Below are positions 1 to 17,554 of a stretch of 64,000 bases of DNA, one piece after another. This stretch comes from a bacterium (lineage in GTDB: Bacteria; Patescibacteriota; Microgenomatia; UBA1400; PJMF01). The notes under the pieces were generated by a model, which was given only the letters and a program-made list of their open reading frames with translations, was not told the DNA's origin and did no database searches. The position numbers and the translations under genes were made by a program. The stretch's first letter is position 1. Each line of letters opens with the position of its first letter. Location: the NCBI GenBank assembly GCA_017431625.1, contig JAFRKQ010000021.1:13324-77323 (forward strand), in the 5' to 3' direction.

Positions 1-447
1 AAGAGCCGGAATCACCCGACTTCCATGGCGATCATCAATCCCCAAACGCAAACAGGCAAAGTCGCGCGTCCCCAAATGTTCGCTCACACTCGCCAGACCA
101 TTATGGGTGCGCGGCAACTTGTGAGTCAATTTGTAGCGGCCCAGCTCCAAATCCAAGTCATCATGGATCACCAAGATATCAACGCTCGCCTCAAGCTGAT
201 AAAACTGAGCGATAGCCGCCGCCGCTAGTCCCGAATCATTCATAAAAGTCGTCGGGTAAGCGATAATAATTTGTTGCTCGCCGCGTTTGACAGTGCGCAC
301 CAAAGCCTGAAATTTTTTTTTGTCAGTCAGTTCACTGGCCGATAATGTTTTCGCCAAAAAATCACCGAAAAGCCAACCAACATTATGACGAGTCGCTTGA
401 TAAGTACTACCAGGGTTACCCAGACAAAGAATTAATTTTGTGTGCAT
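1..447 (-). CDS. pth: Peptidyl-tRNA hydrolase, truncated at window edge (N-terminal ~149 aa present)
   Basis: Manual minus-strand translation from ATG (compl. 445-447) gives MHTKLILCLGNPGGSTYQATRHNVGW..., the Pth GNPG/TRHN signature. The ORF runs off the window start. It is absent from the ORF track because no stop is in window. Confidence 0.8.
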   Translation of the reverse strand, partial: MHTKLILCLGNPGSTYQATRHNVGWLFGDFLAKTLSASELTDKKKFQALVRTVKRGEQQIIIAYPTTFMNDSGLAAAAIAQFYQLEASVDILVIHDDLDLELGRYKLTHKLPRTHNGLASVSEHLGTRDFACLRLGIDDRHGSRVIPAL

Positions 448-476
448 AGGGCGCATCATATGCCAAAAGTTCGCAC

Positions 477-505
477 TTGTCAAGAACGAGTTTTTGCGCT
501 ACAAT
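477..505 (+). promoter_or_regulatory. Sigma70-like promoter TTGTCA-N17-TACAAT feeding a near-leaderless ATG at 513
   Basis: TTGTCA at 477-482 and TACAAT at 500-505, with the start codon 7 nt downstream. Confidence 0.5.
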
Positions 506-512
506 AGAGTCA

Positions 513-1691
513 ATGAAAAAATGTGTATTGGTTATTGCTGGTCTTTTGGCGTTTTTGGGAGTGGGTCGTGTTGCGGCAGGCGGACTAGAAACCCAAATTT
601 ATAGCGATAATCACGCCTATTCTACGGCTAGCAGCCCACAAACTTCCACCTTGCGTATTGCCATGCGCCCCTCAGCCAGCGTCCCCAACTCGGCGATTGA
701 AGTCTACTTGTACGCGATTGCCCCCACGGCGACGGCGAGCGATGGCGTGGCCGACTTTAATGCTTTTGACATTGGCAATATCGAGGTTGAGTGTCCCCAG
801 TCAATTCCAGGAGTTTTTGATTTTGGCACCCCCGAAATTATTCCAGCCGAGCGTAGTCATATTCACCTCAACGATGGCGATTATCACCGGATTATTTGCC
901 CCTACGCCGGCACGGGTGACGTCTCGCAAGCAGACTTTGGTTATGACAATGATAATTATTTGATCATCAAAAATTTGCTCAATCCTCGCCACGATCCCAG
1001 CCTGCCCAACTCACAATTGATTTATTCACCGATTTGGATTAATTTTTCGGCCGCCGTTGCCCAGCTGACGATCACCTCAGCACGCAATGTCCGTGTCCTG
1101 GCGACAATCATGCCTCAAATCAGCCTCACGATTGAAGGAGTGCCGGAAGGGCAAACTTATTGCGGGCAAAAAACCAAAAAAACCACCACCGGCAAGGTCG
1201 CCGATTTTGGCCAAGTCGACAATGAATATTTTGCTGATATTGCCCAAAAACTCACCGCTACTACCAATATGATCAATGGTTATGTCATTACCGCCCGCCA
1301 GGACGACCAGATGCGCATGGTAGACGCCCCCATGATGAAAGGGGAAGCAGTAGTCTGCACCGGACATGGTGACACCAATGATATTTGTATCAGTGATGCC
1401 AATCCCGGAGGTATTAGTGCCACCAAGGCAGTACCTTGGAATGATTCTTTGCGCACGCACGGCATGGGTTTTACCTTGGAAAATGAATTTGGCGGTGACA
1501 GTCTTTTTTCTTACAAAGATGGTTACCGGATTTTTGCCGACCAACAAAATGGTGACGAACCCGTAAGTATTATCAAAGGCGATGGCCATCGAGGTGTTGA
1601 CTACGTTTGCTATCGGCTGACGGCTTCCGACGACAATTTACCTGGCTTTTACGCCAACAAAATCACCTACGTACTCACTGCTAAATTCTAG
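513..1691 (+). CDS. Hypothetical secreted protein (N-terminal signal peptide MKKCVLVIAGLLAFLGVGRVAAG)
   Basis: Long ORF. Hydrophobic signal-like N-terminus follows the internal ATG at 513. No recognisable catalytic motifs. Confidence 0.6.
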   Translation: MKKCVLVIAGLLAFLGVGRVAAGGLETQIYSDNHAYSTASSPQTSTLRIAMRPSASVPNSAIEVYLYAIAPTATASDGVADFNAFDIGNIEVECPQSIPGVFDFGTPEIIPAERSHIHLNDGDYHRIICPYAGTGDVSQADFGYDNDNYLIIKNLLNPRHDPSLPNSQLIYSPIWINFSAAVAQLTITSARNVRVLATIMPQISLTIEGVPEGQTYCGQKTKKTTTGKVADFGQVDNEYFADIAQKLTATTNMINGYVITARQDDQMRMVDAPMMKGEAVVCTGHGDTNDICISDANPGGISATKAVPWNDSLRTHGMGFTLENEFGGDSLFSYKDGYRIFADQQNGDEPVSIIKGDGHRGVDYVCYRLTASDDNLPGFYANKITYVLTAKF

Positions 1692-1756
1692 GTTCCCCGA
1701 TAGCGTCATCTACTATTATAATAGTAGTATCTTTATGCTGAAAAATTGGCTGATTA

Positions 1757-3157
1757 TTAATTGCTCTGTTGCCGGACACAGGACTCAAGTTGAGCAAAAG
1801 TCTTGAGTGTGAGTTTTTGGTCACGCCGCCGCAGCCCGCGCACCAGCTCACCCAGCGATCGAGCCTGATCGAGTGTGGTAATTGAGGTTAAAATATCATG
1901 CAATTCTTGATCGGTTAGCTCACGAGCGTCTTGGATCCACGCCAGATCTTCATGCCAATTGGCAAAACCAGCCGTATCCACACACCGATAAAAACGCATA
2001 AGGTAATCACGGACTAGGACGATGTCAGTGCGCTTGACCAGTTCATTGAGCAAATTGGTAGTTGGCAGATCTTGACTAAAATAAGTGAGCTTGAAATCCA
2101 AATCATCGCGAGTACGCACGGGAAATAGCTGCACTTCTTGACTAGCATAAATAATCCCTGAGCGCACTTTTTGCAGTAGTGAGTAATACTCACCGGTGGG
2201 ATAATGGATATAATTGTAGGCGTACAAATGAAAACCATTAGGCGAGAGTGTTCGCGTTTGCGGCACGTCCCAAGTCTGCATCGCCCCCAAAATAGCGGCT
2301 TCTGGGGTAGGAAATTCATGATCAAGCAGCCGGCGCATGTGTACCAAAGGCAGATTGGCACAGCGAATGGTACCAAACTCCATGTGTGAGACCGCCAAAC
2401 CTATCAGTGATTCCACCGACACTTGACCAATAAGCGCAGGCTCACGAAACATTGCCTGCAGCCACTGAGTTCGTTCTTGATCCAAGTCATTTAATTGAGA
2501 TAAAGTTTCGCGACTCACTGAAGGGGGAAATTCATAGCCAGCCCAGGCCGCGGGCAAGCCCGATGCTTGTGCCTGTTGAGTCTGGGTAATCAGTTCGTGA
2601 GCTTGTCCCAAAAGCTGGCGCAAGCGGCGCAAACGAGTCAGATTGTGATTAAGCGGCGCGCGTTTGTTGTCACTCGCTGTGTCCAGCTCACTTTCGGCCT
2701 GACTACCCACCTGTGACCAGATAGCTGGATTTTGCCCCACCTCGGCGGCTTGCCAAAAAAGTTCAATGCACGTGCGTGCTGGCACCAAATGCCACTCCAA
2801 GTCAGCCCCACCCAAAATCCGCCACGCACCAGCCAACAAGCTCGCCCAATTGCTAGTGCGGTGGGTTTTGAATTCGCGAAAAAGCTGACTTACCAGCGTG
2901 GGATCCAGGGTATCGATCAGTTCATAAAAAAGTTGCTCTACCTGCTGGTAATCGCTTTCTGGTAAATCTGGTTGCTCACGCCGGTAAGCCTCAGCAAAAC
3001 GGCCAAAACTCCCACGAAAACTCTCATCACGTTCACCAACCAACTGCTTCAAAGCTGGAGCTAAATCTTGCTCGCCAACAGCCGAAACAGATGGACTTTC
3101 AGCCACAGCTGAAGGTTCTAAATCAACTGGCGGTAGTGTGGGCACTGATTGAGGCAT
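1757..3157 (-). CDS. Hypothetical protein (466 aa, GC-rich)
   Basis: Long uninterrupted ORF with coding-like composition (~55% GC). No family recognised. Confidence 0.6.
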   Translation of the reverse strand: MPQSVPTLPPVDLEPSAVAESPSVSAVGEQDLAPALKQLVGERDESFRGSFGRFAEAYRREQPDLPESDYQQVEQLFYELIDTLDPTLVSQLFREFKTHRTSNWASLLAGAWRILGGADLEWHLVPARTCIELFWQAAEVGQNPAIWSQVGSQAESELDTASDNKRAPLNHNLTRLRRLRQLLGQAHELITQTQQAQASGLPAAWAGYEFPPSVSRETLSQLNDLDQERTQWLQAMFREPALIGQVSVESLIGLAVSHMEFGTIRCANLPLVHMRRLLDHEFPTPEAAILGAMQTWDVPQTRTLSPNGFHLYAYNYIHYPTGEYYSLLQKVRSGIIYASQEVQLFPVRTRDDLDFKLTYFSQDLPTTNLLNELVKRTDIVLVRDYLMRFYRCVDTAGFANWHEDLAWIQDARELTDQELHDILTSITTLDQARSLGELVRGLRRRDQKLTLKTFAQLESCVRQQSN

Positions 3158-3159
3158 AA

Positions 3160-3507
3160 CTAAAACCTCAGGCTACTCAGACACAAAATCCCGACCACCG
3201 AGACGAGATTGTTGAAGGTGGACAATTCCAGGGCCTGATGAAAATCATCACAAATACTCCAGCGAAAAAACCACGCTTCCAGCAAAATAATCGCTGTCTG
3301 AGTGGCTAGCAGCATCGCCAGCCACCACTCCAGACCTCGACGACTCACCAAACTCATGACGACCACAAAAAGCGGATTGGTCAGAAGATTACCCACCAAA
3401 ACCACCAGTTGTTCGCGCCAGGTGTGTTTGTCCAGCAGCCAGCTTGTTCCCGCCTCAAACACAATCGTTAGTAATAAACTTTTCACTAGATTTATCAGCG
3501 CGAACAT
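3160..3507 (-). CDS. Small hydrophobic membrane protein
   Basis: ORF 3160..3570. Probable start at MFALINLV (compl. 3505-3507). 3-4 predicted TM helices. Sits immediately upstream of the 466-aa ORF on the same strand. Confidence 0.45.
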   Translation of the reverse strand: MFALINLVKSLLLTIVFEAGTSWLLDKHTWREQLVVLVGNLLTNPLFVVVMSLVSRRGLEWWLAMLLATQTAIILLEAWFFRWSICDDFHQALELSTFNNLVSVVGILCLSSLRF

Positions 3508-3584
3508 AGACTCTTTCTGTTTGCACCAACTATTATAGCATACATCAGTCGTATTGTGACAGGGAATCATGAAATATTTAGCTA

Positions 3585-3613
3585 TTGTATTTACCCTGAG
3601 TTTATGGTATAAT
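3585..3613 (+). promoter_or_regulatory. Promoter for tRNA-Cys (TTGTAT-N17-TGGTATAAT)
   Basis: Extended -10 TGGTATAAT at 3605-3613, 12 nt before the mature tRNA 5' end. Confidence 0.5.
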
Positions 3614-3625
3614 CAATCTCAAGAT

Positions 3626-3699
3626 GTCGCGGTACCAGAGTGGTCCAATGGCCGGGTCTGCAAAACCTTGGTTCGCGGGTTCGAATCCCGCCCGTGACT
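3626..3699 (+). tRNA. tRNA-Cys (anticodon GCA)
   Basis: Hand-folded. Acceptor stem GTCGCGG/CCGTGAC (7 bp including one G-U). T-arm GCGGG-TTCGAAT-CCCGC. Anticodon loop CTGCAAA with U33 and A37. No encoded CCA. The D-arm is short (3 bp). Confidence 0.75.
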
Positions 3700-3799
3700 C
3701 ACTAGTAAAATATTGTTGATGCAAGGGAATAATATTAGTAATTGAGGAAATTTTGTGAACAAAAACAAAACTAACCGCGATCCGCTCCATTCACAAAAA

Positions 3800-3814
3800 A
3801 GCACTAATAGTGCT
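3800..3814. repeat. Perfect palindrome AGCACTAATAGTGCT upstream of the (GA)n tract
   Basis: agcact/agtgct inverted repeat seen directly. Confidence 0.6.
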
Positions 3815-3837
3815 CTTGGTGTAGTTTCGGAACTCTC

Positions 3838-3858
3838 GAGAGAGAGAGAGAGAGAGAG
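3838..3858. repeat. (GA)10 dinucleotide microsatellite, 25 nt upstream of the large glycosyltransferase ORF
   Basis: gagagagagagagagagagag flanked by tcgag on both sides. Confidence 0.95.
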
Positions 3859-3882
3859 TCGAGAACACGAAGTAGTACGTGT

Positions 3883-6800
3883 TTGTTATCACAATTCGAT
3901 TTGAATCTGGATAAGCCAGTAGCAGAAGGTGAGAGGCAAGACCAGAGCGAAAGTATCCAGACTGTTTATAACGATGGAAAAGTTGAAAAGCAGATTCTTG
4001 ACTGTTTGTTCCGAGGTGATGCTCCCGCGACAATAGAAGACAATACTGGGGTAGTGTTTCATAATTTTACGAATGCCCGGGAAAATTTACTCAATTGGTA
4101 TCCATTTAATAAGAATGCTGAGATTCTAGAGGTCGGTGCGGGTATGGGTGGCCTAACCGGTTTATTATGTGATCGGGTAGCTCATGTAACTGCTTTAGAG
4201 AACGCTCCACAGCGTGCTGATATTATTAGGATGCGTTATGCAGAAAAGAAAAATTTAACAGTAATTACTGGCAATTTGGCAGATATTGATAAAAATAGCA
4301 AGTTTGATTATATTTTGGTAGTAGGAGTACTTGAATACGTAGACATTGGAAAATCGTCCGGCAGACAAGCACATTTGGATTTTCTATCTCAAGTGAAACT
4401 CATGTTAAAACCAGGAGGGATTTTGTTGCTGGCAATCGAAAATAGATTTGGTTTGAAGTACTGGTGCGGTGCGGCTGAAGATCACATTGGCAAGCCTTTT
4501 GTTGGTATTGAAGGTTATAAAGATAGTTATACAACTAGATATCAATCGCGAGGTGTAACAACTTTTGACAAGCAATCATTAGCTGATTTATGCAAAGAAG
4601 TGGGTTTGGTTTATCAGCGTTGGTATTACCCTCTTGCTGATTATAAATTTCCCACAGCGATCTTTAGTGATGACAAATTACCTAGTTTAAGTGATATTGC
4701 CAGAATTAAGTTCACTTACCCTCAAGAGTCGACACTGATAGCCGATGAGAGAGAACTTTACCGTGAAATAATTAGTAATGATGTATTTCCTTTTTTTGCC
4801 AATTCTTTTTTATTAGAGACATCGACAACTGATTTACCCAGCGATAATGTAATGTGTGCATTCTTAAAGCGTGATTATGCTGCTCAATATCGGCTAGCCA
4901 CTATTTTCATGCGCGATACGGTAGAAAAAGTGGCTTTGAATGGCAAGGCTAAAAATCATTTAAACGAATTAATTAACAATACCAATGCGATTAAAAAAAG
5001 AGGCGTGCCAATTTTGGAAGGAAAATTATTAGATGAGCGCTGGATATTGAAAAAAATATCAATGCCTTTAGCAAATAAAAAAATGGCAGAATGGCTGGAG
5101 CGAGGAGATTTAGCGTCAATTAAAGATTTGTGTGAAAAGTTGGAGACATATTTAAAGAAGTCTTCGCCCTTTTTCAGTGCCAAAAATGTCTACAACTGTG
5201 AACTTGGAGATTTTGTCTTTGACCAGGAAGAAGTGATTTTAGAAGACGGTTATATTGACTTGACCTTTAATAATAGTTTTTATCAAGATAGCGATTTATT
5301 ATTCTTTGATCAGGAGTGGCGTTTAAAAAATGTACCTTTGAAATTTATTCTCTATCGTGCTTTGCTTTATGCTTTTAAAGATAATAGCTTTTTAAGCTTT
5401 GACAAACTTCTAGCGACCGTCAAAATTAATGAAACCATGACACAACAGTTTGCCCGAGCAGAAAAAATAATGTTGTCTTCAATTATGGATGATGAGATGG
5501 TAAAAAGATTCGACAGCGATATGTACCATGAAGGATTAACGTTGAATTATCAAAGAAAACAAGAGTTATCCAACAAACAGGCTCACATTGAAACATTGCT
5601 TGAATCTGAACGCAGTTTAAATCAAATAATTGACAATCAAAAAAAACAATTGACTGATCAAAGCGTGACAATTGACAACCAACATGGTCATATCGAGCAG
5701 CTTCTCGAAAAAGAACGTGCTTGGGAACGAGAGAAAAATTCTAAAGCCTATCAGCTAGCAATGAAGTTTAGTGCCACCTCACAATTTTTCTTGCCAGAAA
5801 AAAGTCGGCGGCGATTTTTATTCAAGGCAGCCAATAAAGTGATTAATGATCCCAGTTTACTACCGAAAGCTTTGGACCCACAACGTTGGCGAGATTACTT
5901 AAGTTTAATGAATAATGGTGAATTTGCGCAAGCAGAAAAGCAACTCGATCAAGCAGCTGTCAATCAGCGAAATGCTAATATCGCTTTAGATGTTTCAAAG
6001 TATGACATTACTCTAGTGACGCCAGAATTGCAACCGATAGGTGTCTACAGACACTTAACGTTCCCGCAAGTCTCTCAGCCTCTAGTTTCGATCATTATCC
6101 CAGTTTATAATCAGTTCAATTACACCTATTATTGTTTGGCATCAATTTTGAAACATACTCAAGACATTGATTATGAGGTAATTATTGCCGATGATTGTTC
6201 GACTGACCTGACTACAGAGATCGCGCAGCTGATAGACAATATAAAGATTGTGAGGACACCCCACAATCTGCGCTTTTTACGTAACTGTAATTATGCGGCC
6301 AAAACAGCACGCGGCAAGTATATATTATTTCTCAATAACGACACCCAGGTACAAGAAAAGTGGTTATCATCACTTTTGGATTTGATTGAAAATGATAAAA
6401 CTATTGGTATGGTGGGATCTAAATTGATTTATCCAGATGGCCGTTTGCAAGAAGCCGGCGGGCTTGTTTGGAATGACGCCAGCGCTTGGAATTACGGCCA
6501 AGGTCAAAATCCAGAGTTACCAGAGTTTAATTACGTGAAAGAATGTGATTATATTTCTGGGGCGGCGATCATGATCAGACATTCCTTGTGGGATGAAATT
6601 GGTGGATTTGATGAGAGATTCGCACCGGCATACTGCGAGGATTCTGATTTAGCTTTTAGCGTCCGTCAACATGGTTTCAAAGTTGTTTTTCAGCCATTAT
6701 CAATAGTGGTACATTTTGAAGGTGTCTCAAATGGCACCGATCTGAGTAGTGGTCAAAAAAAATATCAGGTAGAAAATACGAAAAAGTTTTATCAAAAGTG

Positions 6801-7995
6801 GCAAAAAATATTGCGTGCCGATCAATTTGCCAATGCACAGAATGTTTTCTTGGCTTGCGATCGGAGTCGATATCGACAGCACGTTTTATTTGTGGATCAT
6901 TACGTGCCAATGTATGATCAAGATGCTGGCAGCAAAACGACGTATGCGTACATAAAAATGCTAGCGCAAAAAGGTTTTGCGGTAACTTTTTTAGGTGATA
7001 ACTTTTACCGGCACGAACCATATACGACCGCTCTACAGCAATTAGGCGTACGCGTACTTTACGGCACCCAGGTTGCTAATAATTTAGAGTCTTGGTTTGT
7101 CCATAATGGCAAATATTTTGACATCTTTTATTTAAATCGACCTCATATATCTGTTAAATATTTAGATTTAATCAGAAATTATTCTTCTGGCAAAGTTATT
7201 TATTATGGTCATGATTTACACTTCTTGCGCACTAGACGAGAATATGAGCTCTCTGGTGATGAAAAAAAACTGACGGAAGCGATGGAATGGCAGGAAAAAG
7301 AGCTATCTATTATGCGACGTACTGACATGAATTATTATCCGTCGAGTGTAGAAGTTCAAGAAATTGCCAAGCTGGATCCACAAATACCGGTAAAGGCAAT
7401 TAGCGCCTATATTTTTTCGGCCGCATCAAAAGTCGATTACCAAGCAGCAAAGACCGATGGGATTTTGTTTGTTGGCGGTTTTGCACACGGGCCCAATCTT
7501 GACGCTGTCAAATGGTTTGTGACAAAAATATATCCAGAAATCTATCACCAGACTCATGCTCCTTTTTATATTGTTGGCTCTAAAGCTCCTGAAGAGATTA
7601 AAAGCATTGATGTACCAGGAGTGATTTGTAAAGGTTTTGTAAGCGAAAAAGAGCTTGAGGAGTTATACCAAAGTTGTCGTCTTAGTGTCGCTCCACTGCG
7701 ATACGGAGCAGGTATCAAAGGAAAAGTAATTGAAGCTTTTTATCATGGTAGTCCAATGGTGACAACATCAGTGGGTATTGAAGGAATAGACGGGGCAAGT
7801 GATTTTGTTTGCGTACGCGATCAAGCGATTGATTTTTCCGAAGCCGTGATCAAACTATATCATAATACAGAAAAATTAAACCGCATTTCCAATTTGTCTA
7901 AGCAGTATGTAGAAAATCACTTTAGTGAAAAATCTGCCTGGGAGATAATTAATGATGATTTTGGCAATGCAAACCAAAAAGAAAGATCCAAATGA
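3883..7995 (+). CDS. Multidomain glycan-synthesis enzyme: class I SAM-methyltransferase, coiled coil, GT2 glycosyltransferase, GT4/GT1-type glycosyltransferase (1370 aa)
   Basis: Motif I ILEVGAGMGGLTGLL (MTase). Heptad-like Q/E/K-rich segment at about aa 550-620. GT2 core VSIIIPVYNQ...DYEVIIADDCSTD...CED. C-terminal GT4-like EX7E region EAFYHGSPMVTTSVGIEG. First in-frame start is TTG at 3883 (no upstream ATG), so the start is uncertain. Very AT-rich. Confidence 0.8.
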   Translation: MLSQFDLNLDKPVAEGERQDQSESIQTVYNDGKVEKQILDCLFRGDAPATIEDNTGVVFHNFTNARENLLNWYPFNKNAEILEVGAGMGGLTGLLCDRVAHVTALENAPQRADIIRMRYAEKKNLTVITGNLADIDKNSKFDYILVVGVLEYVDIGKSSGRQAHLDFLSQVKLMLKPGGILLLAIENRFGLKYWCGAAEDHIGKPFVGIEGYKDSYTTRYQSRGVTTFDKQSLADLCKEVGLVYQRWYYPLADYKFPTAIFSDDKLPSLSDIARIKFTYPQESTLIADERELYREIISNDVFPFFANSFLLETSTTDLPSDNVMCAFLKRDYAAQYRLATIFMRDTVEKVALNGKAKNHLNELINNTNAIKKRGVPILEGKLLDERWILKKISMPLANKKMAEWLERGDLASIKDLCEKLETYLKKSSPFFSAKNVYNCELGDFVFDQEEVILEDGYIDLTFNNSFYQDSDLLFFDQEWRLKNVPLKFILYRALLYAFKDNSFLSFDKLLATVKINETMTQQFARAEKIMLSSIMDDEMVKRFDSDMYHEGLTLNYQRKQELSNKQAHIETLLESERSLNQIIDNQKKQLTDQSVTIDNQHGHIEQLLEKERAWEREKNSKAYQLAMKFSATSQFFLPEKSRRRFLFKAANKVINDPSLLPKALDPQRWRDYLSLMNNGEFAQAEKQLDQAAVNQRNANIALDVSKYDITLVTPELQPIGVYRHLTFPQVSQPLVSIIIPVYNQFNYTYYCLASILKHTQDIDYEVIIADDCSTDLTTEIAQLIDNIKIVRTPHNLRFLRNCNYAAKTARGKYILFLNNDTQVQEKWLSSLLDLIENDKTIGMVGSKLIYPDGRLQEAGGLVWNDASAWNYGQGQNPELPEFNYVKECDYISGAAIMIRHSLWDEIGGFDERFAPAYCEDSDLAFSVRQHGFKVVFQPLSIVVHFEGVSNGTDLSSGQKKYQVENTKKFYQKWQKILRADQFANAQNVFLACDRSRYRQHVLFVDHYVPMYDQDAGSKTTYAYIKMLAQKGFAVTFLGDNFYRHEPYTTALQQLGVRVLYGTQVANNLESWFVHNGKYFDIFYLNRPHISVKYLDLIRNYSSGKVIYYGHDLHFLRTRREYELSGDEKKLTEAMEWQEKELSIMRRTDMNYYPSSVEVQEIAKLDPQIPVKAISAYIFSAASKVDYQAAKTDGILFVGGFAHGPNLDAVKWFVTKIYPEIYHQTHAPFYIVGSKAPEEIKSIDVPGVICKGFVSEKELEELYQSCRLSVAPLRYGAGIKGKVIEAFYHGSPMVTTSVGIEGIDGASDFVCVRDQAIDFSEAVIKLYHNTEKLNRISNLSKQYVENHFSEKSAWEIINDDFGNANQKERSK

Positions 7996-8999
7996 TTATT
8001 ACGCAAACTCCATTTCGGATGTCTTTTTTTGGCGGTGGAACTGACTTTCCCGAATTTTTTCGTGAGCATGGTGGCAGCGTAATATCGTCTACTTTTGATA
8101 AGTATGCATATGTAAACGTCCGCCATTTGCCGCCATTTTTTGATTATACTAGTGAAATATCTTATTCAAAACTAGAACGGGTAAAAAGTGTTAATGAGAT
8201 TGAGCATCCGGCAGTGCGTGAAACCATGAAATATCTAGATATGCATGATTTGCGTATCTCATATGAAGCTGATTTACCAGCACGTTCCGGCTTGGGGACA
8301 AGTAGCTCTTTTGTCGTGGGGATGTTACATGCTTTCTATGCGCTTAAAGGCAAATACGCAAGCAAAAAGCATTTAGCTGACGACGCAATTTATTTAGAAA
8401 GAGAACTGTGCAAAGAGACAGGCGGTATCCAAGACCAAATTGCTGTCAGTTTTGGCGGTTTTAACAGAATTAATTTTGATGTTAAAGGTTACAGTGTCAA
8501 TCCCATTATTATTTCTCCTAGTCGTTTGCAGCAGCTAAATGATTCCTTACTACTTTATTTCACTGGTTTTTCTCGTATTTCTGCTGATATTCAAGTGCAG
8601 ACACAAAAAAATCTCAAAAATAATACGAATACATTACTAGAAATGCTAGAATTAGTGGATGAAGCCGAAAAAATTCTTACTAGCAAAACGAATTTAGATG
8701 AATTTGGACGGCTGCTTGATTATACTTGGAAATTAAAACGCGGTTTGACGGATAAGGTTTCTACTGGTTGCATAGATGATATTTACGCTGAGGCACTCAA
8801 AGCCGGCGCTTTGGGAGGCAAACTCTTGGGAGCTGGCGGTGGTGGCTTCTTACTCTTTTATGTTGCACCAGAAAAGCATGCTCAAGTAAAAGAATGTTTG
8901 TCGCGTTTATTGTATGTGCCTTTTTGTTTTGAAACTGGTGGCACACGTGTTATTCACTACACGCCAGAAATTTATGATGATCGTGGAGAGGATAAGTAA
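7992..8999 (+). CDS. hddA: GHMP-family sugar kinase, D-glycero-D-manno-heptose 7-phosphate kinase (HddA-like)
   Basis: GHMP motif PARSGLGTSSSFVVGML. The N-terminus (MSFFGGGTDFPEFF) fits HddA. ATGA overlap with the upstream stop. Confidence 0.75.
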   Translation: MIITQTPFRMSFFGGGTDFPEFFREHGGSVISSTFDKYAYVNVRHLPPFFDYTSEISYSKLERVKSVNEIEHPAVRETMKYLDMHDLRISYEADLPARSGLGTSSSFVVGMLHAFYALKGKYASKKHLADDAIYLERELCKETGGIQDQIAVSFGGFNRINFDVKGYSVNPIIISPSRLQQLNDSLLLYFTGFSRISADIQVQTQKNLKNNTNTLLEMLELVDEAEKILTSKTNLDEFGRLLDYTWKLKRGLTDKVSTGCIDDIYAEALKAGALGGKLLGAGGGGFLLFYVAPEKHAQVKECLSRLLYVPFCFETGGTRVIHYTPEIYDDRGEDK

Positions 9000-10279
9000 T
9001 GAAAAAACCTCCTGCAGTAATCATGGCTGGTGGCAAAGGAACACGAATCGCAGCGATAAACGCAACTGTGCCTAAACCAATGATAGAGATTGCTGACAAA
9101 CCAATCTTGCAATATGAGTTGGAAGTGCTGTCGCGACAAGGCTATCGTGATGTTACTATTGTTACGGGACATCTCGGCCATGCAATCCAAGAATATTTTG
9201 GTGACGGCAGCAGTTTTGATTTGCAAATTAACTATCTGCACGAAAAAGAACCTTTAGGCACAGCGGGTGCGCTTTATTGGTTAAAAGGTAAAGTCTCTAC
9301 CGATTTCTTGTTGCTTAATGCGGATATTATTTTTGATGTCGATCTGGATCGTTTTTACCGTTATCACCAAGCACAAAAAACGACAGCGACGATTTTGACC
9401 CATCCTAACGCTCATCCCTATGACAGTGCAATTATTGCTGCAGACAAAAATAACATTGCAACTGCTTGGTTACATAAAGAAGACACACGACTCTGGTATC
9501 GCAACCGCGTCAATGCTGGGTTGCACTTTTTATCGCCTTCTGTTTTCGCGAGCTATAAAACTCTAGAAAAAAAAGACTTGGATCGAGATATTCTCAAACC
9601 ATTAATTGAAACCCACCAACTAAGTGTCTATGACTCTCCAGAATACGTCAAAGATATGGGTACGCCTGATCGCTATGAAAATGTAATCAAAGATCTACGC
9701 GATGGCTTAGTAGCAGCAAGAAATCTCAATCGGCGACAAAAAGCAATCTTTTTGGATCGTGACGGCACTTTAAATAAAGATGCTGGCTTTTTGACAAATA
9801 TTGACCAGCTGGAATTAATTCCTGGAGCGAGCGAAGCAGTAAAGTTAATTAATGATAGCGGTTACTTAGCAATTGTCGTCACCAATCAACCAGCAATAGC
9901 GCGTGGAGAATTAACTATTGCACAGTTGGATTTGATTCATCAAAAATTGGAAACTTTATTGGGGCAAGATGGCGCTTATCTTGACGCTATTTATTATTGC
10001 CCACATCATCCAGATAAAGGTTTTTCTGGAGAACGACCAGAATATAAAATTGAGTGTGAGTGTCGCAAACCAAAGCCAGGAATGCTGCTGCAAGCAGCTA
10101 GACATTTTAATATTGATTTGTCATCATCTTGGATGATTGGTGATAGTATTAAAGATATTGAAGCCGGAAAGGCAGTCAATTGTTACACTGCACTTTTGAG
10201 TAAAGAGCAAGCGAATATACAGCCAGATTTGTCGGCACGCGATTTATTGTCAGCAGTCAAAAAGATATTGGACAAATAG
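8999..10279 (+). CDS. Bifunctional heptose-1-phosphate nucleotidyltransferase (HddC-like) fused to D,D-heptose 1,7-bisphosphate phosphatase (GmhB, HAD family)
   Basis: N-terminal MAGGKGTRIA...GTAGALY nucleotidyltransferase. C-terminal AIFLDRDGTLN (HAD motif I) plus the Zn-finger signature CPHHPD...CECRKPKPGML typical of GmhB. Confidence 0.8.
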   Translation: MKKPPAVIMAGGKGTRIAAINATVPKPMIEIADKPILQYELEVLSRQGYRDVTIVTGHLGHAIQEYFGDGSSFDLQINYLHEKEPLGTAGALYWLKGKVSTDFLLLNADIIFDVDLDRFYRYHQAQKTTATILTHPNAHPYDSAIIAADKNNIATAWLHKEDTRLWYRNRVNAGLHFLSPSVFASYKTLEKKDLDRDILKPLIETHQLSVYDSPEYVKDMGTPDRYENVIKDLRDGLVAARNLNRRQKAIFLDRDGTLNKDAGFLTNIDQLELIPGASEAVKLINDSGYLAIVVTNQPAIARGELTIAQLDLIHQKLETLLGQDGAYLDAIYYCPHHPDKGFSGERPEYKIECECRKPKPGMLLQAARHFNIDLSSSWMIGDSIKDIEAGKAVNCYTALLSKEQANIQPDLSARDLLSAVKKILDK

Positions 10280-10282
10280 AAT

Positions 10283-10924
10283 ATGTCACAAAATAAATAT
10301 TTAGCTGAATTACTTATAAGATATCCGAGATTAGCGGCTTGCGAAAACAGTGTTTACCAAACATATCAAATGTTACTAGATAGTTTTGCCAATCAACATA
10401 AACTTCTTGTAGCTGGCAATGGGGGAAGTTGCGCTGACGCAGAGCATTTAGTGGGTGAATTGATGAAAGGCTTTTGTTTACCGCGACTTTTAGATGAACA
10501 ACAAAAGCAGAAGTTAATAAGCATTGATGATGAAATCGGTAAAACTTTAGGTAAAAAATTACAAGGTGCTCTTCCCACTCTCGCACTAACAAATCACAAT
10601 GCATTAAATACAGCTTATCTTAATGATGTTGATGGACTTTATATTTACGCGCAACAGGTTTACGGCTACGGCCAAGTTGGCGACGTCTTTTTGGGGATTA
10701 GCACTTCAGGCAATTCTAAAAACATCCTTAATGCAGCCGTAACGGCAAAAGCAAAACAGCTAAAAGTGATTGGTTTAACGGGGGAAAATGGTGGTAGATT
10801 AAAAGATTATTGTGATGTCTGTATCTGTGTGCCAGAAACGGAAACATTTAAAGTCCAAGAATTGCATTTGCCAGTTTATCATTGTTTAGCATTGATGTTG
10901 GAAGAGAAGTTTTTTGGAAAGTGA
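10283..10924 (+). CDS. gmhA: Sedoheptulose-7-phosphate isomerase (SIS domain)
   Basis: LVAGNGGSCADAEHLVGEL, ISTSGNS and QELHL motifs match the GmhA consensus. Confidence 0.85.
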   Translation: MSQNKYLAELLIRYPRLAACENSVYQTYQMLLDSFANQHKLLVAGNGGSCADAEHLVGELMKGFCLPRLLDEQQKQKLISIDDEIGKTLGKKLQGALPTLALTNHNALNTAYLNDVDGLYIYAQQVYGYGQVGDVFLGISTSGNSKNILNAAVTAKAKQLKVIGLTGENGGRLKDYCDVCICVPETETFKVQELHLPVYHCLALMLEEKFFGK

Positions 10925-10962: not shown

Positions 10963-13809
10963 ATGCTAACACTTAAAAAGTTTTATTTGACACATTTTCT
11001 TAACAAAAAACAGATACGAGATTTGCTGGAATTCTTATCAGTTATACTTGCCATTAATATCCTAATAATTATCGGCGTGAAAAATGGGCTTTTTTTTCTA
11101 GAAAGTGGTGTACTCTATCGAGACGTCCCTGTTTATAAGTTTGCCGATAGTCTCAAAAGTGGCGACGATAGCGTAGAACAAGAGTTTATTCCTAAGATGC
11201 CAGGGCTTACGAGAATTGATATCAGATTGGCCTATGCAGGTAATATTGAGGATGATCATGCACAAGCACTTTTAACTTTAAGCGACGATGAGGGGAATAT
11301 TTTATCTGAACATATTGTTACTGGAGATAATTTTGAAAACTGGCGCTATTTTAGTATAGACGCTAGGGGCTTGCAATGTGGACACAAGTATGTCATCAAA
11401 ATGCAACAACAATCACAGAATTTGACTCCAGACGGCGATTTTGCAACTTCGTGGGCTCCTTTTGTTTATGAAGCCGATGAAATCCTATCCAAGGATAAAA
11501 CTTTTCCTCAAGAGAATCTCACTAGTTATTATAATCATGCAGTACGTAATTACCATTGGGACATTCATTATGTCTATGGAAGAACAGTTTATCTATATAT
11601 GCTTTTTATTGATATAATAGTGTTTAGCGTGTATATACTGGGGTCTATTTTTTTAAAACACATGGCTCTGCAAAAAAAGAAACAATGTTTAAATTCAGAT
11701 ATAAAAACGATCACAAATGCCATTTTGATTAGCAATTGCTTAGTGGCTAGTTATTTAATTTATGTTGTTTATGTTTGGTTTCTTGAGTTAGTAGATTTTG
11801 TTTGCTATTTTTTTCAGTGGCCGCAAGCGACACCAATTTCTCGCATTATGGTGGCTTCTTTTACTATGTTACTAGTCTTTTTCTGCAAAAGAAAGAAAGC
11901 GTTTATCGTGGGAAGGTTGTCCTTTAATTGGAAATTATTGCTGGCCATTGTATTTTTTATCCTGCTGAGTGCGACCAAAATTGTGTATCCAGATACTAGT
12001 GCGGATACCTTTAATTATCATTTATTGGCACAGCAGCCGGGATTTGTAAACTATTTTAAACAAGGTTTTGGCGCAGGGGGATTTCAGGTGTGGGGTTTCC
12101 GCCTTGGAGATCGTTTATATTATCCATTTCGAGTGTTGCTGGGGTATAGGTTGGGGACTGTTTTAAATACCATAGTTGTCATAATCATCTACTTACAACT
12201 AGTTCTTATTATGCAAACATTTACTAAGGACAATGTGCGAAAGTTCTGTTTGTCTCCTGAAATGTTTGCTTTACTTTTACTGGCCACGCAGTGGGACACT
12301 CTATTAATGATGGGCATATACTATGTGGATATTTTATCTATCCCTTTAATTTTGGAAGCATTTAGAATACTTGCTTCTCATGAAAATGAGAAAATAAATA
12401 CAACTAAAATAATTTACTTGTCTTTTCTACTGGGGTTTGCTTTTGCCTTCAAAATGACGAATATTGCATTTGTGTTACCATTGGGAATGGTTTTATTGGT
12501 AAAATCTTGGAAAAAAATTACGCCCGTTAGCTTTATTGTCGCCGGTCTTGCTTGTGTTTTACCGGTTAGTATTTATTTAATATTTAATTTTGTTTGTACA
12601 CGTAATCCAGTTTTCCCTTATTATAACAAGATTTTCCGATCTCCATATTTTAAGATCGCAAATTTTAAAGATAATAGATGGGGCGGGAGTGACACCAAGC
12701 AACAACTACTCTGGTTTTATCATATCGTAAAGCACCCAGAAAGCCGCGTTTCGGAAATTAATAATCCTAACACTACATTCATACTATTTTCACTATTTGC
12801 GTTCATTTTGCTACTTTCTTTGGTTGTATATTATCACTGGAGGAAGCGTTATACTTACAAATCATTCTTCACGTATATTGGCATGATTATATTTTCATAT
12901 TTGATTTGGACATTTTCAACTGGTTATCCGCGCTACTATATTGGCGGTTTTATATTATGGGGATTGGCAATTTATTTATGCCTTTATTTATTTTCCCAAA
13001 AAAATTTACTTGTAACTAATGTACTTAGTGTTATGTTCATTGTTGTTTCATTGCTAATTGCCAAAGACGAGGCGTGGACAGTTGTTGTCGCCGGTCATGA
13101 ATGGTCATGGCGTCAATTCTCTATGGCCACATACAAGATACAATTACCATTGATATTCCATGACAAAATATGGTATTTGCCTGATAATCAAGAATTTCCT
13201 GATAAATTTATTTTGACTGAGGCAACCACGGGGGACGTCGTTTTAGCTAACCCGCGGGCTTCTATCATAGCCTTATATTATCAACGTTGGCTGGATAATC
13301 AGGAAACTATAAACGATCTTCACAATAAAGCAAAACAAGCATTAAATTCGAGAGGATATATCATTTTAAGAAGTGCTAAGAATCTAAAAGCGATTATTGA
13401 CGAACTAAATAAGTATAGTTTATACTTAAATGATATACAGATGATATATACCAATCAGGCTCAGCGTTATTTAGGATTGGTAGAAAGACTTATGGATGCA
13501 ACCAACTCAGGCGAATTAGTTACAGATGATTTTCATACTACATTAAATATTAAACCAAACCGCAATAATGTAAATTTTATATATGTATGTATTACATCCA
13601 ATGAAGGAGGAAATTGCGATTATCATGTCACTCTATCTCAAGATAATGCAGTAGTTTATGAAGAAAATATTAATATAGGAAAAGATCAAACTGGAAAATT
13701 AGATATGAATATATCTGAAGAAGTGTCACCAGACACCCTAGACGTTTCTATTATGAACAATCGAGCTAATAGCTCTGGCAGTCAATTGGCAATCATCAAC
13801 TTGCACTAA
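10963..13809 (+). CDS. Large polytopic membrane protein (948 aa, >12 predicted TM helices plus a C-terminal soluble domain). Possible GT-C-type glycosyltransferase, oligosaccharyltransferase or polymerase
   Basis: ATG at 10963. Long hydrophobic helices throughout aa 200-700, then a hydrophilic ~250-aa C-terminal domain. AT-rich. No catalytic motif recognised, so the functional call is by context. Confidence 0.6.
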   Translation: MLTLKKFYLTHFLNKKQIRDLLEFLSVILAINILIIIGVKNGLFFLESGVLYRDVPVYKFADSLKSGDDSVEQEFIPKMPGLTRIDIRLAYAGNIEDDHAQALLTLSDDEGNILSEHIVTGDNFENWRYFSIDARGLQCGHKYVIKMQQQSQNLTPDGDFATSWAPFVYEADEILSKDKTFPQENLTSYYNHAVRNYHWDIHYVYGRTVYLYMLFIDIIVFSVYILGSIFLKHMALQKKKQCLNSDIKTITNAILISNCLVASYLIYVVYVWFLELVDFVCYFFQWPQATPISRIMVASFTMLLVFFCKRKKAFIVGRLSFNWKLLLAIVFFILLSATKIVYPDTSADTFNYHLLAQQPGFVNYFKQGFGAGGFQVWGFRLGDRLYYPFRVLLGYRLGTVLNTIVVIIIYLQLVLIMQTFTKDNVRKFCLSPEMFALLLLATQWDTLLMMGIYYVDILSIPLILEAFRILASHENEKINTTKIIYLSFLLGFAFAFKMTNIAFVLPLGMVLLVKSWKKITPVSFIVAGLACVLPVSIYLIFNFVCTRNPVFPYYNKIFRSPYFKIANFKDNRWGGSDTKQQLLWFYHIVKHPESRVSEINNPNTTFILFSLFAFILLLSLVVYYHWRKRYTYKSFFTYIGMIIFSYLIWTFSTGYPRYYIGGFILWGLAIYLCLYLFSQKNLLVTNVLSVMFIVVSLLIAKDEAWTVVVAGHEWSWRQFSMATYKIQLPLIFHDKIWYLPDNQEFPDKFILTEATTGDVVLANPRASIIALYYQRWLDNQETINDLHNKAKQALNSRGYIILRSAKNLKAIIDELNKYSLYLNDIQMIYTNQAQRYLGLVERLMDATNSGELVTDDFHTTLNIKPNRNNVNFIYVCITSNEGGNCDYHVTLSQDNAVVYEENINIGKDQTGKLDMNISEEVSPDTLDVSIMNNRANSSGSQLAIINLH

Positions 13810-14236: not shown

Positions 14237-14481
14237 ACTTTTTTACCGAGGCTATATTGCTCGCGATGAAAGTCACAATACTTTCCCTATCGTCAATGGT
14301 GACAATAATTGTGCCGCCGTCCTGTTACCGGCCAACTATCATGGTATTATCACTGTAGAATACCAAAAAAGAAAAATCTGGATTTTGGGCGAATGGATAT
14401 CCGTCATCACTTTGTGTGTACTCATCAGCATCGCCGTTATCACATACTGCAACCAGCGACGCACACAAACATCATAAATTA

Positions 14482-14521
14482 CTGCCACTCCCCGCCATTT
14501 CTGGCAAAAATTCGCACTAAA
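14482..14521. repeat. R1 repeat, copy 1 (CTGCCACTCCCCGCCATTTCTGGCAAAAATTCGCACTAAA)
   Basis: About 88% identical 40-nt copy at 15809-15848. Copy 1 overlaps the -35 region of the downstream ATPase gene (TATAAT at 14536-14541). Confidence 0.8.
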
Positions 14522-14548: not shown

Positions 14549-15799
14549 ATGCTCGAAATCAAACGTGACTACTATCTGCGCCAACTGATCGCCCAGCGTG
14601 GCTCTAGTTTCATCAAAATCATTACTGGCTTGCGCCGTGCCGGCAAATCCTACTTGCTCGATCCAATTTTTCGCCAATTCTTACTTCAAGATGGCGTCGC
14701 GCCGGATCATATCATTCACCTCAATTTGGAAGAGTTTGAAAACCGCTGCTTGCTTGACCCCTCCGCATTATTCACTTTTGTCAAAAAACAAATCGCCGAT
14801 AGTCAAACTTATTACGTGCTCCTCGATGAAATCCAACTTGTGCCCGGTTTCGAGTCCATTCTCTCCAGTTTTCTCCACCTAGACAATCTCGACGTTTACG
14901 TGACTGGCAGTAACTCACGTTTCTTGTCTTCAGACGTCATCACTCAATTTCGCGGCCGTGGCACCCAAATTCACCTGTATCCACTCAGCTTTGGCGAAAT
15001 TTATGCCGCCTTAGGCGGTGATAAATACGAGCTCTGGGAGCGTTATTACCGTTACGGTGGCTTGCCGCAAGTGGTCCAGCAGCCCGATGACCAAGCCCGG
15101 ATCTCCTTTTTAGAAGCACAAAAAGACAATGTTTATCTCAATGACTTAATAGAACGTTATCGTATCCGCAATAGTGACAGTCTGGGTATCCTCAGTAGTG
15201 TCATCGCTTCAGACGTGGGTGCGCTCACCAACCCCCACAAACTCGAGCGCACCTTCAAAAGCAAAATTGGTGTCGACCTAAGCTACCACAAAATCGAGGA
15301 TTATTTAGAAAAACTCCAAAACGCTTTTTTAATCGAAAAATCTAAACGTTTTGACGTCAAAGGCAAACGTTATATTGATACTCCGGTAAAATACTACTTT
15401 ACTGATCCCGGCATTCGCAACGCTTTCGTTGATTTCCGCCAAACAGAAGAATCTCATCTGATGGAAAATATTATCTATAATGAACTCCGCCGCCGCGGAT
15501 TCAAAGTCGATGTCGGCACGGTCGAAACCAGAGGGGAAAATGGCACTCGCCAACAATTAGAGGTGGATTTTGTCGCGAGAAAGGCCGATAATACATATTA
15601 TATTCAATCAGCCCTCACGATCGGTGATAGTGCCAAAAGATACCAAGAATCACGCTCGCTAGATCACATTAATGATCACTTCAGCAAGATCATCATCGCC
15701 AAAGATACTTTTGCTCCCGGCCACGAGCGCAACGGCATTGCTACCATCGGTCTTTTTGGCTTTTTACTCGATGACAAAATCCTAGATAAATATCAATAG
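14549..15799 (+). CDS. AAA+ ATPase of the COG1373 / AAA_14 + DUF4143 family (paralog 1)
   Basis: Walker A GLRRAGKSYLL. Walker B YVLLDEIQ. The length and C-terminal half are consistent with DUF4143-type proteins. ATG at 14549 with TTATAAT 7 nt upstream. Confidence 0.7.
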   Translation: MLEIKRDYYLRQLIAQRGSSFIKIITGLRRAGKSYLLDPIFRQFLLQDGVAPDHIIHLNLEEFENRCLLDPSALFTFVKKQIADSQTYYVLLDEIQLVPGFESILSSFLHLDNLDVYVTGSNSRFLSSDVITQFRGRGTQIHLYPLSFGEIYAALGGDKYELWERYYRYGGLPQVVQQPDDQARISFLEAQKDNVYLNDLIERYRIRNSDSLGILSSVIASDVGALTNPHKLERTFKSKIGVDLSYHKIEDYLEKLQNAFLIEKSKRFDVKGKRYIDTPVKYYFTDPGIRNAFVDFRQTEESHLMENIIYNELRRRGFKVDVGTVETRGENGTRQQLEVDFVARKADNTYYIQSALTIGDSAKRYQESRSLDHINDHFSKIIIAKDTFAPGHERNGIATIGLFGFLLDDKILDKYQ

Positions 15800-15808
15800 T
15801 GTCACTCT

Positions 15809-15848
15809 ACTGCCAATTTCCGCCATTTTTGGCAAAAATTCGCACTAA
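15809..15848. repeat. R1 repeat, copy 2
   Basis: Direct repeat of 14482-14521, beginning 10 nt after the stop of ATPase paralog 1. Confidence 0.8.
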
Positions 15849-16049
15849 ACCAACCAGAAATAATCTAAACAGGTTCAAACACATTTCGGAATAAAAATTT
15901 GGGTTAAGTAAAAAAAACGTGGAGGTTTTTTGCATGGCTTTTAGCGGTGTATACGTAAAATTGGCATTATTTTGCACTTTTTGAGTGCTAAAATACACCA
16001 ATTGCGACCAAGAAGTAGGCAACACCAAATCTGTGTTGCACTCCCACTT

Positions 16050-16140
16050 AACCCCACATTTCGTGAAAAAACAGCCAAAATTAACTTTACATTTCGTGAT
16101 ATTTTGCCAAAAATTAAGCTTACATTTCGTGAAAAAACAC
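16050..16140. repeat. R2 array A: three tandem 33-bp units with core TTACATTTCGTGA, immediately upstream of a TTGACA -35 element
   Basis: ACATTTCGTG at 16056, 16089 and 16122 (period exactly 33 bp). Inter-core sequence is semi-conserved (GCCAAAAATTAA). TTGACA at 16141. Confidence 0.85.
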
Positions 16141-16192
16141 TTGACAATTATTCTAATAGTGATCTAATCACTAAGAAAGGTTGAAAACTATT

Positions 16193-17545: not shown

Positions 17546-17554
17546 TTGATCACT

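Follow-up and report, generated by a model that had tools for sequence, protein, structure and literature searches.

A predicted single-chain glycan polymerase and terminator with a (GA)n tract at its start in a Patescibacteria genome

What kind of enzyme is encoded by a gene that joins a methyltransferase to two glycosyltransferases in a single chain, and where does such a gene begin? Both questions are raised by an open reading frame (ORF) of 1370 codons in a 64,000-nucleotide stretch of DNA from a member of the Patescibacteriota (assembly GCA_017431625.1, contig JAFRKQ010000021.1, positions 13,324 to 77,323 of the forward strand). The whole of this stretch is called the window below, and residues are numbered in the 1370-aa translation. 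The reading that we favour, with a probability of roughly 0.65, is that the gene encodes a single-chain enzyme in which polymerase, ruler, and terminator are combined, belonging to a surface-glycan route that depends on an ATP-binding cassette (ABC) transporter. Its translation would start upstream of the ORF, at a GTG codon, and would be gated by a (GA)n tract. The coordinates of all features are collected in Table 1.

The ORF appears in a mechanical ORF listing with TTG 3883 as its first possible start, and the first methionine of its translation is residue 88, in agreement with the remark of the initial annotation that no in-frame ATG occurs for about 90 codons. Every motif that was quoted at the time (ILEVGAGMGG, VSIIIPVYNQ, DYEVIIADD, CED, and EAFYHGSPMV) is located in the translation. 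That annotation had read the protein as an N-terminal class I S-adenosylmethionine (SAM)-dependent methyltransferase, a coiled coil, a GT2 glycosyltransferase, and a GT4-like C-terminus. Domain searches and two AlphaFold2 models recover all of these, in the order SAM methyltransferase, kinase-like domain, 65-residue helix, helical linker, GT2 (GT-A fold), and GT4 (GT-B fold); what had been overlooked are the kinase-like domain of some 300 residues that lies between the methyltransferase and the helix, and the (GA)10.5 tract shortly ahead of the ORF that deprives it of its start. The model of residues 1–720, built on a 53-sequence alignment, has a predicted local distance difference test score (pLDDT) of 87.3 and a predicted template modelling score (pTM) of 0.77, and that of residues 690–1370 a pLDDT of 90.7 and a pTM of 0.88. 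When compared with NCBIfam, the 1370-aa protein obtains generic glycosyltransferase and methyltransferase matches alone, all far under the curated equivalog cut-offs.

The fusion is genuine. Among 5.8 billion proteins, a search found 398 relatives with E <= 1e-10, and the best 120 of these are all 1308–1513 aa long, share 40–53% identity with the window protein, and carry the same Pfam set of methyltransferase, GT2, and GT1-type domains. Some of these proteins carry the names of Clostridium botulinum, Oscillibacter, and Peptoanaerobacter. That a frameshift or an error of assembly had run separate genes together, a risk which the initial annotation had itself raised, is excluded by at least 120 full-length homologues with equal domain order. 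The subfamily that combines methyltransferase, kinase, coiled coil, GT2, and GT4 has hundreds of uncharacterised members, mostly in gut Firmicutes, and is linked to genes for nucleoside diphosphate (NDP)-heptose synthesis and to Wzm/Wzt.

No Pfam model matches the kinase-like domain (residues 245–552), and this region is nonetheless the most conserved part of the N-terminal half of the protein, with D459, N464, D476, Q477, E478, and W479 invariant in 53 sequences. In the AlphaFold2 model, the order of elements is a beta strand, D-x4-N, two further beta strands, and D-x-E, an arrangement that, as modelled, matches a kinase catalytic loop with the metal-binding aspartate after it. The top Foldseek match in the PDB for the N-terminal half is WbdD (E 5.7e-10), with 552 aligned columns versus about 270 for plain methyltransferases. 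BLASTP alignment of the window protein with the N-terminal part of ORF6 from the Klebsiella pneumoniae O7 cluster, transcribed from supplementary Fig. 9 of PMC11231755, gives 31% identity over 288 aa (E 2e-30) and runs through the methyltransferase into the beginning of the kinase. Motifs common to the two are YSDGD, LEIGAGxG, IGVLEY, AIENxxGLKYxxGxxEDH, PDYKxP, and ANSFL, and the methyltransferase motifs are conserved in the 53 homologues. When the kinase-like profile was aligned to the O7 sequence alone with hhalign, just the ANSFL region was aligned.

The domain is far from rare. An exhaustive HMMER scan of 1.84 billion representatives found it in 1199 proteins, 515 of them at E <= 1e-10, nearly always at about residues 225–520, behind a methyltransferase, in proteins of 440–1850 aa; 17 of the best 150 exceed 1150 aa. 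The module is thus widespread, in some proteins on its own and in others joined to glycosyltransferases. Because the initial annotation had missed this domain, the predicted cap changes from a plain methyl group to what, by analogy with O7 ORF6, is most likely a methyl phosphate.

Of the two glycosyltransferase modules, the C-terminal one is matched by Pfam Glyco_trans_1_4 / Glycos_transf_1 at residues 1193–1339 (E 1.8e-21). In Foldseek searches with the model of residues 690–1370, the GT-A part matches GalNAc-T2 (E 1.5e-14) and the K4 chondroitin polymerase, and the complete GT-B part matches BshA with a template modelling (TM) score of 0.72 over about 410 columns.

Between the catalytic ends lies the candidate ruler. 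Residues 554–618 are modelled as one unbroken helix, for which the best heptad register places hydrophobic residues at 53% of a/d positions versus 28% overall, a value reached by 116 of 5000 shuffles (p ~0.02). The heptad-like coiled coil of about 70 residues proposed at the outset thereby takes shape as a 65-residue helix within a segment of variable length. In the 78 homologues with both anchor motifs retained, the segment between the kinase motif FFDQEW and the start of GT2 measures 223–414 aa (standard deviation 34), while the flanking modules are near constant, with standard deviations of 6 aa for the N-terminal module and 3 aa for the GT2+GT4 module. Since variation in length is thus confined almost entirely to the linker and coiled-coil segment, it follows the pattern expected of a spacer of tuned length. 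The helical linker itself could provide a membrane or oligomer contact. The subfamily, with linkers of 223–414 aa, offers a natural set of ‘ruler-length variants’ for testing the molecular-ruler model beyond enterobacteria.

Gene neighbourhoods of the homologues point to export of a capped polymer. A wzm-wzt pair lies immediately upstream of the homologue gene in eight loci (L001–L003, L005, L007, L012, L013, and L016), that is, wherever the 5' DNA of a full-length homologue was available, and the Wzt_C domain is recorded in two of them (L001 and L013). Stand-alone N-terminal modules also sit beside Wzt, in a deltaproteobacterial metagenome-assembled genome (MAG) in which Wzt_C is recorded (L009) and in a flavobacterial MAG (L010). 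The next genes downstream are NDP-heptose genes in the window as well as in L001, L005, L013, L016, and L017. No flagellar or S-layer genes were seen beside the homologue loci.

These neighbourhoods bear on the proposal that the enzyme does not polymerise at all but decorates, placing a fixed disaccharide with a methyl or methyl phosphate group onto a teichoic-acid-like polymer, an S-layer protein, or flagellin. Processivity is not implied by GT2 and GT4 domains alone, and the window has a GT-C-like membrane protein and no transporter, both of which would suit such a role. However, the wzm-wzt pairs of the homologue loci, some with Wzt_C, are typical of capped-polymer export, a spacer of variable length between the catalytic ends fits control of length and not a fixed addition, and the closest characterised relatives, O7 ORF6 and WsaE, are polymerases. 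We therefore consider a decorating enzyme very unlikely. Its flagellin and S-layer versions were dropped, as no such genes adjoin the large gene in the window or in the homologue loci.

Two of the homologue loci are informative about origin and cap. The nearest cluster organisation is that of a Lachnospiraceae MAG (L005), which reads wzm-wzt-GT-hddA-hddC/gmhB-gmhA and encodes heptose proteins 58–75% identical to those of the window; this organisation and these identities are consistent with transfer from gut Clostridia. In the same locus (135–9958), two relatives of the large enzyme flank wzm-wzt, and the downstream one matches residues 561–1360 only, so that it has the coiled coil, GT2, and GT4 and no terminator; hddA, hddC/gmhB, and gmhA follow it in the order seen in the window. 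The other locus (L004, 7520–10807) encodes a relative of 1095 aa that is 54% identical from the coiled coil onwards but carries another methyltransferase and lacks the kinase; together with the stand-alone N-terminal modules of L009 and L010, it speaks for module swapping. By analogy, its architecture and that of the window protein would mirror the O8 (methyl) and O9a (methyl phosphate) variants of WbdD. This second locus, from a MAG labelled Pseudomonadales, is like the window without an adjacent wzm-wzt, and an unrelated membrane protein of about 890 aa follows. Several MAG labels of ‘Pseudomonadales’ also occur among Patescibacteria-like DnaK matches, and may be wrong.

Where the gene begins is a separate matter. 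The initial annotation named TTG 3883 as the first possible start, and the NCBI annotation uses TTG 3901, which gives a protein of 1364 aa (P0001); neither codon is preceded by a Shine–Dalgarno sequence. Upstream of both lies GTG 3755, with GAGGA at a spacing of 6 nt. The frame opened by this GTG passes through (GA)10.5, is offset by one base from that of the long ORF, and stops at TGA 3902–3904. A protein of the same 90% cluster, P0123, is an in-frame product of 1412 aa that begins MNKNKTNRDPLHSQKSTNSALGVVSELSRERERESRTRSSTCLLSQFDL. Its locus, in another ENA assembly (L014), aligns to window positions 3268–8485 with 0 mismatches in 5218 nt and a single gap of 2 nt, which makes its tract (GA)9.5. 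In simulation, the full-length ORF is restored at 6.5, 9.5, or 12.5 GA copies only. GTG 3755 is on this evidence the predicted true start codon, in place of the TTG, which would be an artefact of the (GA)n frameshift; the ORF in the window has its odd TTG start because (GA)10.5 puts GTG 3755 out of frame.

The tract looks like a slipped-strand ON/OFF contingency locus, of which the window would hold a copy in the OFF register. It is the sole dinucleotide repeat of at least five copies in the 64 kb, and 0 are expected in shuffles. A third assembly (L015) has (GA)10.5 as in the window, with 7 substitutions in 7.2 kb. Five of these seven differences are A-to-C or T-to-G, and may be sequencing errors rather than a real nonsense allele where a stop codon results. 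Two JGI metagenome scans with the repeat flanks found no further GA alleles. Since the stop codon of the leader ORF overlaps TTG 3901 (as TTGA), some re-initiation yielding the 1364-aa form is possible in the OFF state, at most weakly.

A simpler account of the same data would be a sequencing or assembly error in the (GA) tract, the cell making a constitutive enzyme of 1364–1370 aa from TTG 3883 or 3901. The start chosen by NCBI accords with this, library amplification by polymerase chain reaction can stutter at dinucleotide tracts, and homologues begin 4–12 residues before the conserved VYSDG (residue 28 in the window ORF), so that a short N-terminus suffices for function. The error account leaves unexplained the lack of a Shine–Dalgarno sequence at either TTG when one stands correctly spaced before GTG 3755, and a perfect 21-nt GA tract that is unique in the window is not expected by chance. 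A tract set between a strong start and a conserved body, differing by one unit in otherwise 100% identical assemblies, is moreover the classic signature of a contingency locus. Simple error is in our judgement a poor bet.

Between tRNA-Cys and GTG 3755, the + strand showed no sigma-70-like promoter, and no terminator was found there either. A TATAAT box at about 3609–3614 (within window positions 3600–3625) precedes tRNA-Cys, and transcription from the tRNA promoter may continue into the glycan operon, which would then be co-transcribed with tRNA-Cys.

Taken together, the favoured reading implies a route whose first five steps are drawn from homology, fold, and synteny, and in which the (GA) allele difference is the only part directly observed; we infer the identity of the sugar and cap, the ruler function, and the use of the switch. 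GmhA, HddA, and the GmhB–HddC protein would first make an NDP-heptose, probably guanosine diphosphate (GDP)-D-glycero-alpha-D-manno-heptose. GT2 (inverting) and GT4 (retaining) would then take turns in adding sugars to a lipid-linked primer on the cytoplasmic side of the membrane. The coiled coil, about 10 nm long, would keep kinase and methyltransferase away from the polymerase, so that only chains above a minimum length arrive. There the non-reducing end would be capped by the kinase and methyltransferase, most likely with methyl phosphate, and growth would stop. In the donor lineages, the gut Clostridia, the C-terminal carbohydrate-binding module (CBM) of Wzt would read the cap, and Wzm/Wzt would export the chain. 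The gene would have reached the Patescibacteria genome in a low-GC island beside tRNA-Cys, without wzm-wzt, and its translation from the Shine–Dalgarno sequence and GTG 3755 would be gated by the number of GA copies, 9.5 being in frame and 10.5, as in the window, out of frame.

Several observations weigh against this reading. The window protein and every member of the GT2+GT4 subfamily are biochemically uncharacterised, and processive polymerase activity is assumed from context. The heptad signal of the helix is modest. For the kinase-like domain, a profile search of all PDB sequences returned spurious helical matches alone and no solved structure; the fold match to WbdD has low TM-scores (0.19–0.29 in Foldseek); and the hhalign profile–profile comparison with the O7 kinase, which pairs D459 with D441, is weak (E 4.5e-4, probability 14%), its probability staying at 14–18% over both alignments. 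The two repeat alleles come from just three assemblies, and in one of these (L015) a T-to-G change at position 5054, equivalent to window 4811, turns codon 310 into TGA. Finally, neither wzm-wzt nor a priming transferase was found in the 64-kb window, and the pathway may therefore be incomplete here.

Some of these points would be accounted for if the gene were a decaying remnant of horizontal transfer, with the enzyme unused and the GA difference being neutral slippage in a dying gene. The missing transporter and priming glycosyltransferase, the out-of-frame state of two assemblies (the window and L015), the extra stop codon in L015, and an N-terminal extension of about 70 aa that is absent from all homologues are what decay might leave behind. 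In contrast, the 1370-codon frame is undamaged in other respects in each of the three assemblies, all family-invariant catalytic motifs are retained, and the four genes that follow are whole and closely spaced. The ON allele is one repeat unit away and differs in nothing else over 5.2 kb, and a good Shine–Dalgarno sequence and GTG stand exactly at the spot needed for a repeat-controlled start. A remnant thus seems unlikely to us, and the single-chain polymerase, ruler, and terminator under repeat control remains the preferred reading.

A wider picture can be offered tentatively, with the odds somewhat against it: that an ultra-small, probably episymbiotic bacterium of the candidate phyla radiation (CPR), living by its apparent provenance in the ruminant gut, acquired from gut Clostridia a complete module of heptose-glycan polymerase, ruler, and terminator and holds it under a (GA)n ON/OFF switch. 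If true, it would be the first case on record in the CPR of surface-glycan phase variation by a simple sequence repeat (SSR), and the switch might vary attachment to hosts or aid escape from phage. If the phase variation is real, genome-reduced episymbionts vary their surface through contingency loci. What is genuinely new is the GA-repeat frameshift that explains the odd start, both alleles of which are present in public assemblies, and the presence of a Clostridia-type module in a CPR genome. The kinase-like domain, with more than 1000 representatives, is invisible to Pfam.

The large gene is the first of the five glycan genes of an island, followed by three heptose genes and a gene for a 948-aa membrane protein. 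GC content is 0.34–0.40 at 4–14 kb and about 0.47–0.48 outside, and the island is flanked by housekeeping genes; no tRNA-derived direct repeat was found at its far end. The start of the hddA-like gene overlaps the stop codon of the large gene, and its product is 68–75% identical to those of its positional counterparts in L001, L005, and L013. The HddC-like part of the next product also matches the model for mannose-1-phosphate guanylyltransferase (2.5e-36). All four activities of the GDP-D-glycero-alpha-D-manno-heptose pathway (GmhA, HddA, GmhB, and HddC) are thus encoded in the window. The exact nucleotide and sugar are putative, because the NCBIfam scores of these genes lie mostly under the curated equivalog cut-offs.

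The 948-aa protein has no Pfam or NCBIfam match and 22 relatives among the 5.8 billion proteins, some with DUF8201 (PF26626). These relatives share clusters with homologues of the large enzyme, downstream of GtrB-like GT2 and GtrA-like genes. The protein is probably a GT-C-type extracytoplasmic glycosyltransferase of a side-chain system, from an undescribed family, and is unrelated to the unannotated proteins found in the same position in L013 and L004. The only ABC system in the 64 kb is of the MacB/HlyD type.

Named relatives of the DnaK protein are Candidatus Pacebacteria, the Patescibacteria group, and Woesebacteria, at 76–84% identity, within the phylum Minisyncoccota, which makes the host a CPR bacterium. 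The sample label (XIEF21) hints at a study of the ruminant gut. To the left of tRNA-Cys lie three genes without Pfam matches, for a small membrane protein of 136 aa (3160–3570, -), a protein of 466 aa (1757–3157, -), and a secreted protein of 404 aa (477–1691, +). Several other ORFs of the window also have no Pfam match, as is typical of CPR genomes. At the right end of the low-GC island, a unit of about 24 nt (CAAAATTAACTTTACATTTCGTGA-like) occurs in three copies at 33-nt spacing at both 16043–16132 and 17548–17637, flanking a gene for an AAA_14/DUF4143 ATPase (16181–17545). A second AAA_14/DUF4143 gene (14549–15799) is placed between direct repeats of 42 nt (14480–14521 and 15808–15849). These repeats look like operator or insertion-site elements around paralogous ATPase genes.

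Table 1. Features of the glycan island and the large gene, in window coordinates.
Feature	Coordinates	Strand	Basis
tRNA-Cys (GCA), left edge of low-GC island	3626..3700	+	ARAGORN
Shine–Dalgarno GAGGA 3744-3748, 6-nt spacer, GTG 3755-3757	3744..3757	+	Sequence; gene caller's start for the 1412-aa P0123 in L014
49-codon leader ORF in out-of-frame state; TGA 3902-3904 overlaps TTG 3901 as TTGA	3755..3904	+	Sequence, simulation
(GA)10.5 simple sequence repeat in 5' coding region; (Arg-Glu)n when in frame	3838..3858	+	TRF
Long ORF, body of the 1412-aa enzyme; 1370 codons from TTG	3883..7995	+	Mechanical ORF listing
Class I SAM-dependent methyltransferase domain, residues 74-243, GxGxG at 85-89	4102..4611	+	Pfam E 9e-9 and related families, AlphaFold2, K. 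pneumoniae O7 ORF6 N-module
Kinase-like alpha/beta domain, residues 245-552; D459-x4-N464 (5257-5274), D476-Q-E-W (5308-5319)	4615..5538	+	Conservation, AlphaFold2, Foldseek
Single 65-residue helix, residues 554-618; predicted coiled-coil spacer or ‘ruler’	5542..5736	+	AlphaFold2, heptad test
Helical linker, residues 619-730, conserved P-x-x-SKRRF motif	5737..6072	+	AlphaFold2 helices 621-697, consensus, 54% identity to L004
GT2 (GT-A fold) module, residues 733-998; invariant DDCSTD, NNDT, CEDSD	6079..6876	+	Pfam Glycos_transf_2 E 8.5e-28, invariant columns, AlphaFold2 and Foldseek
GT4-type (GT-B fold) module, residues ~1000-1360; invariant R-x-G-A-G-x-K-G-K-x-x-E	6880..7962	+	Pfam, Foldseek, invariant columns
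hddA-like GHMP kinase (D-glycero-D-manno-heptose 7-phosphate kinase)	7992..8999	+	Pfam, NCBIfam HddA E 2.5e-41
Sugar-1-phosphate nucleotidyltransferase (HddC-like) fused to GmhB heptose-1,7-bisphosphate phosphatase	8999..10279	+	NCBIfam HddC 1e-26, GmhB 4e-52
gmhA-like sedoheptulose-7-phosphate isomerase	10283..10924	+	NCBIfam GmhA 1e-38
948-aa polytopic membrane protein (DUF8201 relatives), last operon gene	10963..13809	+	Translation, homologue search

A single protein that both polymerises and caps is an established design, known from WsaE (2008), WbbB, and O7 ORF6 (2024), and is less novel than the initial annotation had thought. Its placing of both activities in one chain gains support from the homology to O7 ORF6 and from the wzm-wzt (and Wzt_C) synteny of the homologues, with the reservations that the design was already published and that no transporter adjoins the gene here. 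The chief value of the present analysis lies in the correction of the annotation and the placement of the gene.

The closest comparison is with ORF6 of K. pneumoniae O7 (Kelly et al., J Biol Chem 2024, PMC11231755), an enzyme that builds the O7 rhamnan chain and then closes it with a methyl phosphate cap. In vitro, the chain end is phosphorylated and then methylated, and the D441A substitution abolishes phosphorylation; in vivo, the D441A protein did not restore detectable lipid A-core-linked O7 polysaccharide (PMC11231755). ORF6 and the window protein are both single chains of about 1400 aa with a methyltransferase, a cryptic kinase (putative in the window protein) unseen by domain databases, a coiled coil, and two glycosyltransferase modules, and their N-terminal modules are homologous. 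The catalytic D441 of ORF6 lies in an (I/L)D-x4-N loop, to which D459-x4-N464 of the window protein may correspond. ORF6 is encoded beside wzm-wzt, as are the homologues of the window protein, whereas the window gene itself is not. The differences are considerable. ORF6 has two GT2 rhamnosyltransferase modules, where the window protein has GT2 and then a GT4/GT-B module resembling BshA, and an immunoglobulin-like CBM precedes its coiled coil, while the window model has no beta-sandwich between residue 485 and the start of the helix at 554. The sugar genes nearby are for dTDP-rhamnose in one case and NDP-heptose in the other, and the hosts are an enterobacterium and a CPR bacterium, of which the latter has the 5' (GA)n frameshift tract in its gene.

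The WbdD/WbdA pair (Escherichia coli O9a and K. pneumoniae O3), reviewed together with single-chain WbbB alongside O7 ORF6 (PMC11231755), shares the logic of methyltransferase and kinase, coiled-coil ruler, polymerase, and export of capped chains by Wzm with a Wzt-borne CBM; WbdD is the kinase–methyltransferase by which the E. coli O9a O antigen is capped. WbdD is a separate protein whose C-terminal membrane helix recruits WbdA, with its two GT4 modules, whereas the glycosyltransferase modules are covalently fused in the window protein and in at least 120 homologues. Between the WbdD kinase and the kinase-like domain of the window protein no sequence-level similarity was found. The WbdD-like ruler of the initial annotation holds in part, WbdD being the best fold match; by sequence, the window protein is better placed in the O7-ORF6-type methyltransferase–kinase family than in that of WbdD.

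The S-layer glycan enzyme WsaE of Geobacillus stearothermophilus NRS 2004/3a combines a methyltransferase with two rhamnosyltransferase domains and is encoded in the order wzm-wzt-wsaE (PMC2943079). It is a Gram-positive precedent for the fusion of a capping methyltransferase to two glycosyltransferase domains, and has the same gene order as the loci of the window homologues, but neither a kinase nor a ruler has been reported for it, and its capping reaction is 2-O-methylation of rhamnose; it is set beside the window protein by description only. WbbB (K. pneumoniae O12 / Raoultella terrigena) unites a terminator, a coiled-coil ruler, and two polymerising glycosyltransferase modules in one chain (PMC11231755). 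Its terminator is a glycosyltransferase for beta-Kdo and not a methyltransferase–kinase, and its glycosyltransferase families are other than those of the window protein.

With the SSR contingency loci of surface-glycan genes in Haemophilus, Neisseria, and Campylobacter, the window gene shares a perfect repeat in the 5' coding region, toggling of the frame by a single unit, and an ON state at one in three lengths. The repeat is a GA dinucleotide here, and a homopolymer or tetranucleotide in those loci. For Patescibacteria, no account of phase variation by SSRs turned up in the literature searches. As a protein, the product of the window gene is a new combination of modules, GT2 with GT4 and no CBM, within an established design.

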